DNA of 64,000 bases from positions 32,001 to 96,000 of the forward strand of contig JBHJGN010000007.1 in the NCBI GenBank assembly GCA_050331735.1, in the 5' to 3' direction. The stretch is from Cyanophyceae cyanobacterium. GTDB taxonomy: Bacteria > Cyanobacteriota > Cyanobacteriia > Cyanobacteriales > JBHJGN01. The notes beneath the pieces were generated by a model. It ran no database searches, was not told the origin of the DNA, and saw nothing but the letters and a program-made list of their open reading frames with translations. Shown one piece after another: positions 899 through 6,208 of the stretch. The stretch's first letter is position 1; the number at the start of each line of letters is the position of its first letter. Position numbers and translations under genes: made by a program.

Positions 899-2245
899 AT
901 GTCTTATCAATACGATCTATTTGTAATTGGGGCTGGTCCTGGAGGACTGGCAGCCGCTCAAAGCGGCGCTGCTCAAGGTATCCGCGTTGCCGTAGCCGAA
1001 CAGGAAGACATCGGCGGAACCTGTCAAAATCGGGGCTGCATTCCGAAGAAGCTAATGGTGTATGCCGCCGATTTTTTTCTTCACGAGAAATTAGCCACCA
1101 GCTATAGCCTGAGTCACTGCCAACGACAGATTGACTGGCCGCAGTTTATGGCCAAAGTCCATCAGCACCTCGATAACCTCAACGAAACCTACACAGAAAG
1201 GTTGCAGGAAGCCGGGATCGAAATTATTCGCGGTCGTGCCACTTTAGTGAATGCCCATACAGTTCAAGTCGGCAGCAGCGAATTCACAGTTGATAAAATT
1301 CTGATTGCTGTCGGGAGTCAACCCTTCGTTCCTGATAGCATTACCGGAAAAGAGCTAGCAATTACCTCCCGCGAGATGTTTCATCTGCCAGAAATCCCTA
1401 AGCGATTAGCCGTCATCGGTGGCGGCTACATTGGTGTTGAGTTTACCAGCATGATGAATGCATTTGGCTCCCAAGTCACCCTTATGGATACGGACGAGCT
1501 AATTTTGTCGGGGTTTGATAACGACATTCGCTCTAGCGTCCTGAAGGGGCTTCAGGGCCGAGGCGTTCAGTTTTTAGCAGAAACAACCGCCAAGGAAATT
1601 AAGCAGGAAGCTGATGGACTGACGTTGAGTCTCTCTAGCGATACTCAACCCCTTACGGTCGATCAAGTGCTGATTGCGACGGGACGTGCTCCCAACACGC
1701 GAGGGATTGGCTTAGAGAAAGCGGGAGTGAAAGTCGGCGAGAAGGGGGAAATTCAGGTAGACGAGTACAGCCGCACTACCCAAGAGAATATCTTTGCCGT
1801 TGGTGACTGTACGAACCGAGTTCCCCTGACGCCTGTTGCTAAGGCAGAGGGTCAAGCCGTTATCAAAGCCATCCTCGGTCAGCCAAAAACGGTTGATTAT
1901 GAATGGGTAACATCTGCGGTCTTTGCCCGTCCGGAAGCAGCAACCGTTGGCTACACAGAAGCCGCGGCGCGGGAGCAAGGTCGCCAGATTCGCTGCTACT
2001 ATACCGATTTTCAGCCCCTCCTATACAGCCTCACAGATGCCAACGAGTTTACTAACGCGATGATGAAGCTCGTTGTAGAAGGCGAACAGGAGCGCGTTAT
2101 TGGCGTACACATGGTGGGCGAACATGCTGCCGATATTGTCCAGAGTTTGGCGGTGGCGGTGCGTAAAGGCATTACCAAGCAAGATTTTGACAATACGTTT
2201 GCGATTCATCCAACGACAGCAGAGGAGTTTCTGACCCTTGATTAA
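899..2245 (+). CDS. gor: Glutathione-disulfide reductase
   Basis: GAGPGG FAD site, redox GGTCQNRGCIPKK, GGGYIG NAD(P)H site, C-terminal HPTTAEE. Confidence 0.85.
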   Translation: MSYQYDLFVIGAGPGGLAAAQSGAAQGIRVAVAEQEDIGGTCQNRGCIPKKLMVYAADFFLHEKLATSYSLSHCQRQIDWPQFMAKVHQHLDNLNETYTERLQEAGIEIIRGRATLVNAHTVQVGSSEFTVDKILIAVGSQPFVPDSITGKELAITSREMFHLPEIPKRLAVIGGGYIGVEFTSMMNAFGSQVTLMDTDELILSGFDNDIRSSVLKGLQGRGVQFLAETTAKEIKQEADGLTLSLSSDTQPLTVDQVLIATGRAPNTRGIGLEKAGVKVGEKGEIQVDEYSRTTQENIFAVGDCTNRVPLTPVAKAEGQAVIKAILGQPKTVDYEWVTSAVFARPEAATVGYTEAAAREQGRQIRCYYTDFQPLLYSLTDANEFTNAMMKLVVEGEQERVIGVHMVGEHAADIVQSLAVAVRKGITKQDFDNTFAIHPTTAEEFLTLD

Positions 2246-3134
2246 CACAGTCCCTCCCGTCGGCATCGGCGGAACGGTTAACAGCTACCCGTGGACCTGG
2301 GCAGGTCAGTCCTATCAAATTGCGTATGAAACTCGGGGAGAAGGTAGCCCGGTACTGTTGCTGCCCGCCTTCAGTACCGTTTCCACCCGCAGTGAACTAC
2401 GCCGCGTGGCGGAGCGATTATCAGCCAAATATCAGGCGATCGCCCTCGACTGGCTCGGATTTGGCGAGTCGGATCGTCCGCCGATTGAGTATTGCGCCGC
2501 ACTTTACCATCAGCTCCTACAGGACTTTGTTACTCATGTGCTCCCCACTCCTGCGGCAGTCGTAGCGGCAGGACATGCGGCGGGCTACGCGATGCAGCTA
2601 GCTCAATCTCAAGTCTTTACGCGGATTGTGCTAGCAGCCCCCACCTGGCGAGGACCGTTCACGGTCATGGGGGCGCCAGATTGGGTGACTAGTGGGCTAC
2701 GAGAGTTAGTGCGATCGCCTCTATTGGGTCCGACTCTTTACTCTCTCAATACTGCCCCGACATTTCTCCGCACCATGTACGAAAGCCATGTTTATACCAA
2801 CAAAGAGTTACTGACGGCAGATTTTATTGACCAGAAGTATCAAGTGACTCAGCACCCCGGCGGCAGATACGCTCCGGTGGCCTTTGTCACGGGTGCCCTC
2901 GATCCGGTGCAATCCCAGCCCGAGTTTCTGGCGCTGTTTCAGCCGCCTCCAGTTCCCGTGCTAACGGTGATCGCCGAACAAGCCCCCGCCGCTTCTAAAG
3001 CAGAGATGAAGGCAATCGGCTACTGTTCTGGGGTAGAAACCAGAAGACTCCCCGGTGCTTTAGGTCTCTACGAAGAGTACGCCGATGAACTCGCCGATAT
3101 TACTCTAGAATTTCTGGGTCGAGCTAGCTCATGA
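2238..3134 (+). CDS. Alpha/beta fold hydrolase
   Basis: PVLLLPAF, ALDWLGFGESDRP motif; overlaps the gor stop. Confidence 0.85.
   Translation: MINTVPPVGIGGTVNSYPWTWAGQSYQIAYETRGEGSPVLLLPAFSTVSTRSELRRVAERLSAKYQAIALDWLGFGESDRPPIEYCAALYHQLLQDFVTHVLPTPAAVVAAGHAAGYAMQLAQSQVFTRIVLAAPTWRGPFTVMGAPDWVTSGLRELVRSPLLGPTLYSLNTAPTFLRTMYESHVYTNKELLTADFIDQKYQVTQHPGGRYAPVAFVTGALDPVQSQPEFLALFQPPPVPVLTVIAEQAPAASKAEMKAIGYCSGVETRRLPGALGLYEEYADELADITLEFLGRASS
2436..2443. repeat. HIP1 octamer GCGATCGC (example; many copies, e.g. 5347, 14650, 14854, 17105)
   Basis: Recurs throughout the window; none seen in the tnpB element or the acyltransferase gene. Confidence 0.9.
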
Positions 3135-3648
3135 TTCCCTTTCTCTGTCCCGCACCGGACTTCCCTTTCTCGAAGTGTTGACGCTCGTGAATCAAACCGA
3201 CTTAGCCTTTACCTCTGCCCTAGAGCAAGCCCAGTTGATTCGTCAGCGGCAAGTATCGCCTTTAGAAATCACGGAGCTTTATTTAGAACGAATTGAGCGC
3301 CTGAATCCTTCCCTCGGCAGCTTTTTCACCGTCGCCTCCGAGATAGCAATTGCTGATGCTGAAGCCAAAACTGAACAGCTAGCGCAAACGAAAGATTTAA
3401 CTGCGCTGCCGGCGTTTTTCGGCGTTCCTACCGCGATCAAAGATCTGAACAATGTAGCGGGAATGCCCTGCTCCTACGGAGTCCAGGCGCTCAAAGAGAG
3501 TCTGGCTACCGATGATGATGGAGTAGTCATGAAAATGAAGACAGCCGGGTTCATTATTTTAGGAAAGTCAGCAACCTCAGAACGATAACGCGGCTATTCC
3601 CGTCTTCAGCGGAGCAAGGCGGGGCAGGATAGCGGGAAAATCAAGGGT

Positions 3649-3786
3649 TCAATGCCCTTGATTTTTCCAATCATACCGTCTGATTATCTCTCTAATCGCT
3701 TCATTAAGAGACATTTCAGCATATTGGGCAAACTCTTTCACTTTCTCATGCTCCACATCCGAAACTCTTAAAGTCAGTCTTTTCAT
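3649..3786 (-). CDS. 45-aa ribbon-helix-helix (CopG/Arc-like) DNA-binding protein inside the IS, divergent from tnpB (below ORF-track cutoff)
   Basis: Manual translation MKRLTLRVSDVEHEKVKEFAQYAEMSLNEAIREIIRRYDWKNQGH; alternating beta-strand, helix, turn, S-L-N-E-A-I-R helix pattern. Confidence 0.75.
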   Translation of the reverse strand: MKRLTLRVSDVEHEKVKEFAQYAEMSLNEAIREIIRRYDWKNQGH

Positions 3787-3819
3787 GACACCGCTGTTAG
3801 TGGTACAATCAGTGTCATG
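3784..3819. promoter_or_regulatory. Divergent control region: inverted repeat CATGACAC/GTGTCATG containing both start codons, with extended -10 TGGTACAAT (3801-3809)
   Basis: Read directly from the sequence; the -10 lies 7 nt before the tnpB ATG, implying a leaderless transcript. Confidence 0.6.
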
Positions 3820-5109
3820 TTAACACGAAGAGTCACCTATCGACTGTATCCAACCCGCTCCCAAGCTAACAAGCTACACTGGGCGCGGAAAGCTCACTGC
3901 GACCTTTACAATGCAGCGATTGCTAACCGGAGGACGCAGTACAAACGGTTTGGACATTCAGTAGGTTATTTGGAGCAGCAAAACTCACTGCCAGCCTTTA
4001 AAGAGGTGTGGTACGAATACAAAGAGTTTGGCTGTCACGCTTTACAGGCGACGTTGAAACGAGTCGATTTTGCTTACAAGCGCTTCTTCAAGGGACTTGG
4101 AGGCTATCCTAAGTTTAAAGCTAAGCGATTCTATCGTGGCTGGACTTACCCGTGTAAACAGAGCTGGAAAGCGCATACCAGTGGGGTTAACGGTTCTCTT
4201 GAGCTTCGGGACTTAGGATTAAAGCTCAAGATGCGGGGACAAGCTCGAACCTGGGGAACTCCTAGCACTTGCACAATCTTTTTCCATCAAGGGAGGTGGT
4301 ACGCTTCTATCACTGTCAAATGCCTTCCTGAACGCGATACGGACAGTGGTGCTGTTGGCATTGACTTGGGTTGCAAGGATGCCGTAACGCTTTCTACTGC
4401 CGCCAAACTTTTGCCGAATGCATTCGGCAAAACAACTGGCGGGGGGGAAAAGATAGCTAAGCCAGAGTTCATTAAGGAGGGACAGCGCAAAGTTAAAGCA
4501 GCATCGAAGCGACTGAGGCGTAAGAGAGCGCCCAACCGGAACAAACGCATAAAAGCTTCCCGGCGCTGGAAGCGTGAGAGAGCCAAGGTTTCTCAACTAC
4601 AAAGGAAGGTAGCTCGTCAGCGCGAAGACTGGCTACATCAGATGACCAGCAGCATAGTTAGCCGTAATAGCCTAGTTGCTGGCGAACAGCTCAACGTGAA
4701 GGGCATGACCCGCAAGGGTAAACGCAAGTGCAAACGGGGTTTGAACCGCTCTATCCTAGAGGTCGGGTTTGGCACGATTGGGGGACTGCTTGACTACAAG
4801 CTCAAAGAGGCAGGAGGCATCTACCTTGAGTCGTCTACCCGCACCCTCAAGCCAACTCAGAGGTGTGCTAAGTGCTGGAAACTAACTCCTAAATCTCTTT
4901 CAGATAGAGTTCATGTTTGTCAGCACTGCCAGCATACCGAAGATCGTGACATCAATGCCGCTCAAGTCAACCTGGCTTGGGCAAGGGGGCAGGAACTGTC
5001 CTCTTTATCCGTCGAGTCGCCTAGCTCTACTGATTGTGGAAGCATGAAGCAACTAGGGGCGTTGAAGCGGAAGAAACTCCGTCCTCAGCCGTCAGGCAGG
5101 GCGGGGTAG
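3817..5109 (+). CDS. tnpB: RNA-guided endonuclease TnpB
   Basis: YRLYPT N-terminus, RuvC-I GIDLG, RuvC-II GEQLNV, Zn ribbon CAKC/CQHC, RuvC-III DRDINAA. Confidence 0.95.
   Translation: MLTRRVTYRLYPTRSQANKLHWARKAHCDLYNAAIANRRTQYKRFGHSVGYLEQQNSLPAFKEVWYEYKEFGCHALQATLKRVDFAYKRFFKGLGGYPKFKAKRFYRGWTYPCKQSWKAHTSGVNGSLELRDLGLKLKMRGQARTWGTPSTCTIFFHQGRWYASITVKCLPERDTDSGAVGIDLGCKDAVTLSTAAKLLPNAFGKTTGGGEKIAKPEFIKEGQRKVKAASKRLRRKRAPNRNKRIKASRRWKRERAKVSQLQRKVARQREDWLHQMTSSIVSRNSLVAGEQLNVKGMTRKGKRKCKRGLNRSILEVGFGTIGGLLDYKLKEAGGIYLESSTRTLKPTQRCAKCWKLTPKSLSDRVHVCQHCQHTEDRDINAAQVNLAWARGQELSSLSVESPSSTDCGSMKQLGALKRKKLRPQPSGRAG
4400..4442. repeat. In-frame hairpin insert within tnpB with perfect 24-bp palindrome TTTTGCCGAATGCATTCGGCAAAA (4409-4432)
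   Basis: Outer arms CCGCCA/TGGCGG; adds about 15 aa (AAKLLPNAFGKTTGG) between TLST and GEKI. Confidence 0.75.
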
Positions 5110-5132
5110 TTCATTTAGGCTCTTTACCCTAC
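4980..5132 (+). ncRNA. Predicted omegaRNA (reRNA) scaffold overlapping the tnpB 3' end, with guide read from the flank beyond 5114; 5' boundary approximate
   Basis: Stacked stems (AAGGGGGCAG/CTGTCCTCTT, CCTAG/CTAGG, right-end hairpin); known architecture of TnpB loci. Confidence 0.6.
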
Positions 5133-6208
5133 ACAGAACCGAGAGGTTTTCTGCCAACGCGCCATCCCTGGAACTTGGACTATACGGCTGGAGGTTCCAG
5201 TGGCGGAGCCGCCTCAGCCGTCGCGGCGGGGTTATGTCCTGTCGCTCACGGTTCGGACGGCGGTGGTTCGCTGCGCGGTCCCGCTGCCTGCTGTGGGTTA
5301 GTGGGCATTAAACCAGCGAGAGGTCGAGTCTCTCATGCCCCAGTTGGCGATCGCCAAAGCGGGATCTCTTCCGACGGTCCCCTCGCTTGTACCGTTACTG
5401 ATGCGGCGGCCTTACTAGATATCATGTCTGGCTACATTCCTGGCAACCCTTACTGGCTGCCAGAGTCGGAATCTTTTTTAGCAGCTACCCAAACCGATCC
5501 TCAACCGTTACGCATTGCGTTTTCTCTGGCTGTTTCTCCTGTGGGAGAGGCCGCGGCAGAGATTCAGCAGAGCGTTATAGAGATCGTAGAATTACTCGCC
5601 ATGATGGGTCACGTTGTTGAACCGGACTGTCCTGACTTTAGCGAGTTAGTCGAGCCGTTTATTCAGGTTTGGTCTGCTGGCGTGGCCGCTGCTGGTTTGC
5701 CCCTCGAGGCCCTAAGTCCGATGAATGGCTGGATTGCTCAACAGTCTGGACATGCCGGAGAGTATCTTCAGGCCGTCACTAAAATGCAGATTGTCGCGCG
5801 GCAAATCGTGCAGTTTTTCGACGCCGTGGACGTATTGGTGCTGCCGACCTATATGCATCCCCCCATTCGCATCGGGGAATGGAGCCAGCTAGAACCCGAA
5901 GCAACGCTCCGCCAGATTATTCACTGGATTGCTCCCTGTCCGCCCTTCAACGCCAGTGGCCTGCCTGCGATCGCCCTTCCTACTGGTTTCGACTCCCGTG
6001 ACTTGCCCAGGAGCGTTCAGTTGGTCGGCAAACCCGCAGCAGAGTCTACTCTGTTTTCTCTCGCGGCCCAGATTGAGTCCGCTCAACCCTGGAGCCACCA
6101 TCGCCCTGCTGTTGCGGCTTAAGACTCGTCACTCTTGATAATTCCCTTTCCCCTTTACCCCTGTTTCCTCACCCAATTTCTGTATAGTTCCGACACAGAA
6201 TCAGGGAA

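Follow-up and report, generated by a model that had tools for sequence, protein, structure and literature searches.

What does a 45-amino-acid (aa) protein do in an insertion sequence (IS) at the place where a transposase would normally be encoded? The question arises from a 64,000-nt stretch of DNA of a Cyanophyceae cyanobacterium (assembly GCA_050331735.1, contig JBHJGN010000007.1, positions 32,001 to 96,000 of the forward strand), hereafter the window, which holds an IS200/IS605-type element with two genes lying head to head: tnpB and a short open reading frame (ORF) of ribbon-helix-helix (RHH) type. An initial annotation had taken the small protein for a dedicated repressor of tnpB. In window coordinates, the element and its genes are:

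3583..5114, plus strand: whole IS200/IS605-type element, 1,532 bp, with tnpB and the RHH gene and without tnpA
3649..3786, minus strand: RHH gene, CopG/Arc-like, 45 aa (MKRLTLRVSDVEHEK...), identified by Pfam, family alignment, AlphaFold2 (AF2) and Foldseek
3817..5109, plus strand: tnpB, RNA-guided nuclease family, 430 aa (NF040570 guided_TnpB, E 4.9e-68)

We consider it probable, from sequence comparison and from analogy with related systems, that the 45-aa protein is a transposon-encoded, CopG/Arc-like RHH autorepressor of a compact two-way promoter. The tnpB gene would be driven by an extended -10 promoter ending 7 nt before its ATG, giving an mRNA with little or no leader, and the RHH gene would begin 30 nt away on the opposite strand. 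An RHH dimer, or a pair of dimers, would bind a repeated sequence within this 30-nt region and block RNA polymerase; tnpB would be held down, and probably the RHH gene too, by negative autoregulation. The gene, its family and the layout of the element are described from observation below, whereas we infer that the protein binds DNA and represses, that tnpB starts without a leader, and which sequence is the operator.

The 45-aa ORF belongs to a conserved RHH family

A near-identity protein search with the 45-aa ORF having returned only itself (the identical protein is present in the public protein collection, whereas the window sequence comes without annotation), the family was detected with profiles, first of two and then of 22 sequences. 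With the two-sequence profile, matches at E <= 0.01 came from 120 of the 401 genomes sampled in the phylum, some genomes having 10-15, and with the 22-sequence profile, 576 of 845 candidate public proteins matched at E <= 0.001. Among the 120 homologs listed, nearly all of those with names are cyanobacterial, and the names given are 'ribbon-helix-helix protein, CopG family' or 'predicted DNA-binding protein'. The 22 members align readily, with the pattern MKKLT-R-SD-EY--L--YC--T-R-QNDVLRE-IR-L and five invariant residues (R7, E12, R32, I35 and R36). The ratio of nonsynonymous to synonymous substitution rates (dN/dS; Nei-Gojobori, first 40 codons) was 0.00-0.12 in 15 of 19 member pairs; the remaining four were saturated, both pairs with the window gene among them. 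Conservation of the ORF, which the initial annotation had named as decisive, is thereby borne out for the family, and by this comparison the ORF is a real, conserved gene of an RHH family under purifying selection.

The matches of the window protein in Pfam and NCBIfam are all to RHH families: DUF6290 (E 2.4e-4, 21.7 bits versus a cut-off of 27), RHH_1 (E 2e-3, 18.5 versus 20.5 bits), NikA-like, HicB and the RelB antitoxin; the Pfam Arc family was absent among its matches at E <= 1. Across the 22 members, at E <= 0.01, RHH_1 was matched by 14 and DUF6290 by 16. Modelled by AF2 with the family alignment, the protein had a predicted local distance difference test score (pLDDT) of 89.8, with helices at residues 10-23 and 27-37 after an extended N-terminus. 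The top Foldseek ranks were almost all RHH proteins (StnY, CopG, Arc, AmrZ, NikR and PutA), with template modelling (TM) scores of 0.7-0.83 overall and 0.76-0.83 for CopG; a sequence-profile search of solved structures gave no meaningful match, the best value (0.028) being to an unrelated viral protein. AF2 and Foldseek together thus give the strand-helix-helix plan of an RHH fold in about 45 residues, the fold that had been suspected from the sequence pattern.

Two genomes (G074 and G378) have 15 RHH-gene matches each. In G074 several copies match residues 1-27 of the profile only, and the single one of these whose sequence was inspected, locus L081, departs from the family after about residue 26. 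Such partial copies are likely decaying remnants of a recently active RHH-tnpB element.

The two start codons flank a compact predicted promoter region

The features of the short region between the two genes are:

3784..3791: left arm CATGACAC of an inverted repeat, including the RHH start codon; candidate half-operator
3787..3816: control region between the start codons, 30 nt, followed by the tnpB ATG at 3817
3801..3809, plus strand: extended -10 box TGGTACAAT of the predicted promoter of tnpB, 7 nt upstream of its ATG
3812..3819: right arm GTGTCATG of the inverted repeat, including the tnpB start codon; candidate half-operator

The initial annotation had pointed out the 30 nt between the two ATGs (exactly 3787-3816), the 8-bp inverted repeat and the extended -10 box, and all three are present as described. 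A promoter scan of 3540-3960 found one sigma-70-like site, TTTTCA-18-TACAAT with a preceding TG, where 0.3 were expected from shuffled sequence. To compare this layout with that of relatives, 17 RHH-tnpB pairs were analysed in which the RHH start is intact and the N-terminus of TnpB can be recognised (L042, L047, L048 and the second batch of loci were excluded). The start codons lie 28-38 nt apart in 15 of the 17, the exceptions being L026 (184 nt) and L031 (64 nt), and a TAnnnT box precedes the tnpB start in the same 15, at 6 nt in 14 of them and at 7 nt in the window; the pairs represent several TnpB subfamilies and are mutually related, so that these counts are not a statistical test. The position of the -10 box relative to the tnpB start is thus kept. 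Since the conserved box lies only 6-7 nt before the start codon, the comparison suggests that the tnpB mRNA is leaderless.

The inverted repeat of the window spans 15 nt (80%), of which the 8-bp core is perfect, and has the form GACAC-N20-GTGTC (GACAC at 3787-3791, GTGTC at 3812-3816, central ACCGCTGT in the spacer 3787-3816). About 0.6 perfect 8-bp inverted repeats are expected by chance per shuffled element. Three of the eight base pairs follow from there being two facing start codons, and the other five would pair exactly there with a probability of about 0.001.

The relatives have repeats of a different kind, each group with its own beside the RHH start codon, and this counts against the earlier proposal that the 8-bp repeat is the operator. 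In L032-L039, where the strand residues of the protein are KKLT(V/I)RCS, the sequence TGACGGC occurs twice with an 11-nt period. A GTAGCA...TGCTAC inverted repeat accompanies the strand QISLR in L041, L043 and L049 and in the tnpB-less loci L050, L085 and L086. L044 has a TTGTATATC...GATATACAA repeat, and a host-resident group whose proteins begin MKRFSLRLTE has TGATG(C/T)C twice. In the window, the strand residues KRLTLRVS are paired with GACAC-N20-GTGTC. Group repeats that vary in step with the strand residues, in a constant position over the promoter, could be what matched operators and repressors look like.

The claim that the RHH protein represses a leaderless tnpB promoter, and probably its own, is well supported by sequence comparison (the family, the layout and the -10 box) and by experiments on analogous systems. 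These results bear also on the alternative that the protein serves transposition or another DNA transaction, by binding the element ends, tuning TnpA in trans or activating transcription. The RHH gene does sit in the tnpA slot and adjoins the left-end hairpins, and RHH activators are known (AlgZ, cited in Moon, Zedaveinyte, Wiegand and Sternberg, bioRxiv, October 2026, 10.64898/2026.09.24.754181; hereafter Moon et al.). However, the repeats that recur among relatives fall in the spacer separating the two start codons, across the -10 box, and none of them at the ends, and the homologous systems tested in the main text of Moon et al. bind the promoter and repress. We therefore regard a role in transposition as quite unlikely.

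Family members recur head to head with tnpB

Divergent RHH genes had been expected beside other tnpB genes, and a survey found them. We examined 49 family loci, comprising the 29 best returned with DNA (L030-L058) and 20 further ones (L078-L097). An ORF with TnpB Pfam domains was directly divergent from the RHH gene in 18 of the first 29 (L031-L039, L041-L044, L046-L049 and L054) and lacking in 11 (L030, L040, L045, L050-L053 and L055-L058). Among the former, the RHH ORF is damaged in L042, L047 and L048 and tnpB is fragmented in L032, L043 and L047. In the second set, searched with a local hidden Markov model, eight of the 20 had a divergent tnpB or fragment and 11 had none; the remaining one had a fragment about 1 kb off, which was not counted. 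In total, the RHH gene lies head to head with a tnpB gene or fragment in 26 of the 49 loci, and the TnpB partners are of at least four different N-terminal types.

Most of the loci that lack tnpB represent host-resident subfamilies with a fixed gene context. One branch, with proteins beginning MKRF(S/T)LRL(T/S)E..., lies beside ferredoxin-like (Fer4) genes in the genome of the window itself (G000, C6:9511-9717, minus strand) and in L040, L045, L056 and L087; in L045 the RHH gene is also near a dinitrogenase cofactor-type gene. The two TGATG(C/T)C repeats of this branch have an 11-nt period and abut the start codon. By its sequence context, this Fer4-adjacent relative of the transposon protein looks like a cellular regulator that controls its own gene. 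A second host-resident branch (MIMTNKKWAVKRITVNL...) lies upstream of an amine-oxidase or carotenoid-desaturase-like gene in several genomes (L053, L057, L093 and L097).

An alternative is that the RHH protein acts mainly on the TnpB protein as an antitoxin does, binding TnpB or its complex with guide RNA and blocking cleavage, with or without DNA binding. Typical type II modules form one operon, and their antitoxins grip the toxin by a C-terminal tail. The RHH genes, in contrast, are divergent from tnpB in all 26 pairs, and the window protein consists of a 45-aa DNA-binding core without a C-terminal tail; conserved repeats, moreover, abut the RHH start codon. A same-strand toxin operon together with a match to an antitoxin model, which would mark a type II antitoxin, was not found, the only other gene of the element being the divergent tnpB. 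The best NCBIfam match of the window protein is indeed the RelB_antitoxin model, far below its cut-off (20.9 versus 50 bits). Prediction of a complex of TnpB with one RHH copy scored 0.00, which gives no verdict and says nothing on binding. An antitoxin-like role was proposed from co-folding models for archaeal pairs of RHH/MazE and TnpB (Altae-Tran et al. 2023, PMC10691335), unlike the present pairs in that they are described as forming one operon, and the main text of Moon et al. mentions that proposal. In the window, we hold such a role to be unlikely and continue to favour autorepression.

The RHH gene occupies the slot of tnpA

The window TnpB covers positions 2-388 of the 389 of NF040570 and scores above the Pfam cut-offs of PF01385 (OrfB_IS605), PF07282 (Cas12f1-like TNB) and PF12323 (HTH_OrfB_IS605); it has the RuvC-like and zinc-finger (TNB) domains of an IS200/IS605 TnpB. 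A second copy of the element lies in the same genome on contig C38 (locus L002; the C38 copy), its TnpB 84% identical to that of the window in protein and its tnpB 81% in DNA. The space between left end and tnpB is filled in the C38 copy by a Y1 transposase gene (PF01797, E 7.5e-26), and in the window by the RHH gene. The 45-aa ORF therefore does lie where tnpA would be expected, as had been claimed. In 19 loci of other species encoding relatives of the window TnpB, with slot content judged by eye, 11 had a Y1-type gene or remnant in the slot. In one of the 19 (L026), a homolog of the small ORF lies further upstream, with 36% identity and E 2e-9.

A TnpB tree with 17 rows joins the window to the C38 copy as sisters (100/100) within a clade that is otherwise mostly tnpA-linked. 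The other RHH-linked member of this clade, L054, is nearby in the tree and not resolved as a sister; its TnpB is 67% and its RHH protein 29% identical to those of the window. Because the two sisters, in a mostly tnpA-linked clade, differ in the gene in the slot, this comparison indicates at least one exchange between tnpA and the RHH gene in the lineage of the window TnpB. The genome of the window has 12 tnpB genes or fragments passing the Pfam cut-off; an RHH gene is found only at the window's copy, and tnpA-like ORFs or fragments accompany five of the 12 (all but that of C38 assigned by eye). We also considered whether the window RHH protein might silence the C38 copy through the same site, and rejected this: the 13-nt start-codon spacer of C38 has neither GACAC nor GTGTC.

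Several further observations were made on these tnpB loci. L026 has a nested arrangement (1858-3802): an IS605-type element with a truncated tnpA is inserted within the first 21 codons of another tnpB, and it is with this interrupted tnpB that the RHH gene at 1858-1992 is paired. In L025, another of the 19, which encodes a Calothrix relative of the window TnpB, the tnpA slot holds a 68-aa ORF unrelated to that of the window (2102-2308, minus strand). It was examined as an RHH candidate and dropped, a single-sequence AF2 model giving two long helices and Pfam only a weak DUF7557 match. The adjoining 2309-2385 has a perfect 18-bp palindrome (AATCTAAACGTTTAGATT) between TTGACA and TATAAA boxes upstream of tnpB, and the tnpB of L025 has a leader with a ribosome-binding site; the 68-aa ORF may encode a different small repressor with an equivalent job. 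Both copies in the genome of the window have private in-frame insertions in tnpB. That of the window is an unusual one of 15 codons (context 4395-4446), absent from the C38 copy and from L054, and includes a perfect 24-nt palindrome (TTTTGCCGAATGCATTCGGCAAAA) at 4409-4432 that is unique in the genome at <=3 mismatches; the C38 tnpB has its own insertion of 19 codons (SAEYDCPSECGNRVPARGA...) at a different place, residues about 229-247.

The element has exact boundaries and splits an amidase gene

The flanks and ends of the element comprise the following features:

3175..3582, plus strand: amidase gene, 5' part (flanking ORF 3175-3588)
3577..3582, plus strand: 5' flank TCAGAA, candidate target motif, similar to a transposon-associated motif (TAM); the C38 copy has CCAGAA at the same position
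3593..3633, plus strand: left-end hairpin 1, an imperfect palindrome (GCTAT...ATAGC) conserved in 4/4 aligned left ends
3634..3668: left-end hairpin 2, overlapping the RHH stop codon (3649-3651)
5076..5107, plus strand: predicted right-end hairpin (centroid fold; weak)
5115..5130, plus strand: flank beyond the right end, expected template of the guide part of the guide RNA, deduced from the TnpB mechanism
5115..6122, plus strand: amidase gene, 3' part (flanking ORF 5034-6122)

Uninterrupted amidase orthologs of two other genomes read straight across the insertion site (TCA/TCT GAA | GTG/TTA GG, protein T-S-E-(V/L)-G-S-F-P-Y-T-E-P), and this places the boundaries exactly at 3583-5114: the site falls after GAA (3580-3582) and before TTA (5115-5117), keeps the reading frame and shows no duplication. 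At the right end, similarity between the window and C38 copies stops at the identical base (...GTAGTTCAT); at the left end it begins at CAGAA|CGAT. As both copies have CAGAA at their 5' flank, it is likely the target motif, tentatively so for two copies of one genome; its role as target or TAM is one that we deduce from how IS200/IS605 elements and TnpB work. Insertion without target duplication beside a short conserved target is as expected of IS200/IS605. The Y1 (HUH) transposase TnpA of such elements is lacking in the window copy, which is therefore non-autonomous. Since the element encodes no transposase gene, its mobility would require a Y1 TnpA from elsewhere, for example from the sister copy on contig C38.

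The left end (3583-3675) folds as DNA into two hairpins with a z of -3.97, and none of 200 shuffles was equally stable. The arms of hairpin 2 (3634-3647 and 3655-3668; 14 nt, 93%) include a perfect 11 bp at 3637-3647 and 3655-3665. This is the 11-bp stem to which the initial annotation had drawn attention at the 3' end of the RHH gene. The stem exists and overlaps the RHH stop codon. As the C38 copy, which has tnpA, and L054 both form a hairpin of other sequence at this position, hairpin 2 is a feature of the left end and is not tied to the RHH gene. On both strands it has a run of A before the stem and a run of T after it, and it may double as a two-way terminator, although a terminator scan did not call it (3634-3668). 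IS200/IS605 elements have subterminal hairpins at their two ends in place of terminal inverted repeats, and TnpB elements encode the guide (omega) RNA at the tnpB 3' end. At the right end of the window element, the whole 85-nt stretch had a z of -1.01, no more stable than shuffles, and there was no Rfam match at 3400-5400 (E <= 1). In the TnpB mechanism, the guide part of the guide RNA is templated by the flank past the right end. The same mechanism is summarised in Moon et al.

The amidase 5' part is 57-72% identical to intact orthologs, and both parts of the gene are still open, which suggests that the insertion is fairly recent. This finding bears on the alternative that the window ORF is a decaying passenger without current function. 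The gene is present as a single copy in the genome, its sequence is divergent with no close relative found, and it accompanies a tnpB with the unusual 15-codon palindromic insertion, all of which would fit decay. Against this, the ORF is intact and keeps all five invariant residues of the family, the fold is predicted with high confidence, the promoter and repeat are intact, and the open halves of the amidase gene suggest that the element inserted fairly recently. We regard a passenger without function as very unlikely, and a functioning autorepressor remains the reading that we prefer.

Weighing the autorepressor reading

A number of observations weigh against autorepression by the 45-aa protein, and they concern the protein, the family and the proposed site. 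Every Pfam and NCBIfam match of the window protein is below its curated cut-off. It is a divergent member, with 24-40% identity to the others in the family alignment, and, no close relative having been found, selection on the window copy is unmeasurable. Foldseek E-values are weak (best 0.18), as is expected for 45 residues, and DSSP assigns no N-terminal strand in the monomer model. As for the family, 23 of the 49 loci are without an adjacent tnpB, and it is thus not restricted to transposons. In the control region, no promoter of the RHH gene met the criteria of the scan. For the window element itself, support for the reading rests on sequence comparison and analogy.

Repeats embedded at the start codons had been expected to recur among tnpB loci; group-specific ones do abut the RHH start, but the 8-bp repeat of the window is unique to it and not conserved in relatives. 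Its arms are 28 bp apart centre to centre, and classical RHH operators are spaced more narrowly than this. Furthermore, many tnpB and RHH genes start in the common context GCATGA(A/G)A, so that part of the start-to-start symmetry may reflect start-site context and not an operator. Whether the 8-bp repeat is the operator of the RHH protein is consequently uncertain, and we would put it slightly on the doubtful side of an even call.

The autorepressor reading as a whole is the one we still find probable; the antitoxin-like, transposition and passenger alternatives, even taken together, amount to a clear minority of what we expect. The notions that TnpB is toxic and that it is expressed in a 'burst on entry into a naive cell', both part of the initial annotation, are speculation.

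A broader reading is that these genes form a separate, large cyanobacterial clade of CopG-like RHH proteins that has repeatedly entered the tnpA slot by cassette exchange between the conserved left end and the tnpB start, with a zero-leader switch, self-silenced elements and host-adopted relatives. We consider this possible, though we lean somewhat against it. If true, a 'zero-leader' switch of 28-38 bp would use the same few bases to transcribe and translate both genes, with an operator touching both start points. The elements, unable to move by themselves, would carry an RNA-guided nuclease whose expression they silence, and relatives would have been adopted by the host for cellular genes, such as the ferredoxin-like genes of a nif neighbourhood or the carotenoid desaturase-like gene.

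Comparison with known systems

The kind of system is already known, and the locus opens no new one. The initial annotation had called it poorly described; in fact, descriptions of Arc-like repressors of IS605 elements date from 2023-24, and experiments on them are given in a 2026 preprint. The 2023 preprint of Zedaveinyte et al. (10.1101/2023.11.20.567912) describes Arc-like RHH ORFs in IStrons and IS elements, linked to TnpB and Cas12k. According to the main text of Moon et al. (10.64898/2026.09.24.754181), Arc proteins of IS605 elements bind the intergenic promoter in chromatin immunoprecipitation sequencing, including in elements with only arc and tnpB; the tnpB promoter is repressed, as followed with a red fluorescent protein reporter and mutants of protein and site; autoregulation is raised as an extension that the authors propose; and annotations lack some of the arc genes.

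The window adds a cyanobacterial, tnpA-less example to these newly recognised transposon-encoded, Arc-like brakes on TnpB. Searching the literature on TnpB, RHH, Arc-like, leaderless and CvkR-Cas12k, with the supplementary data of Moon et al. outside the scope, we found no description of the cyanobacterial layout described here. The main text of Moon et al. mentions none of cyanobacteri*, Nostoc, Synechoc* or leaderless, and the clade could be among its 8,024 Arc proteins, in the supplementary data. Beyond that published main text, the present comparison contributes the exact boundaries and a sister copy with tnpA in the same slot, together with a conserved -10-to-ATG spacing that points to a leaderless tnpB and group repeats that may be parts of matched operator/repressor pairs. 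For transposon biology, this bears on how non-autonomous TnpB elements stay quiet; for the use of TnpB as a compact genome editor, native promoters and repressors are practical parts.

Like the window, the Arc systems in the main text of Moon et al. have a small RHH gene (some <=50 aa) within an IS605-family element, beside tnpB and across an intergenic promoter; a small RHH gene beside tnpB across a promoter-bearing spacer is what the window element has. The systems tested there are clostridial, many with arc and tnpA on the same strand, whereas in the window the RHH gene is alone in the tnpA slot. Set against them, as described in that text, the window-type pairs are distinguished by a spacer of only 28-38 nt and a -10 box 6-7 nt before the tnpB start.

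A parallel from the same phylum is found in the regulators of cas12k (Ziemann et al. 2023, PMC9938897), TnpB being the presumed ancestor of Cas12 (Altae-Tran et al. 2023, PMC10691335). As that article describes them, they are, like the RHH gene of the window, small repressor genes upstream in reverse orientation in cyanobacteria, and cyanobacterial cas12k and cvkR are translated from leaderless mRNAs. Two of the regulators, Arc_1 and Arc_2, are RHH proteins of 53-72 aa. We considered whether they belong to the same family and rejected this, their published alignments being by eye unlike the MKKLT-R-SD-EY...QNDVLRE-IR pattern. The cas12k system also differs in its Tn7-like host element and in that CvkR is of MerR type (PMC9938897).

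In size and fold, the window protein is closest to CopG of plasmid pMV158 and to P22 Arc, the structures that match it best (TM about 0.8). Each of these represses its own expression by binding to repeats that overlie a promoter. They differ in genetic context, and the window protein has no significant sequence match to any solved structure.

The archaeal RHH/MazE-TnpB pairs, finally, resemble the window in the stable linkage of a small RHH gene to tnpB. In the account of Altae-Tran et al. (PMC10691335), the archaeal RHH gene is upstream of tnpB and shares its strand, the catalytic site of TnpB is rearranged, the pairs are immobile and a toxin-antitoxin function is proposed; the pair of the window, by contrast, is divergent, mobile and bacterial.

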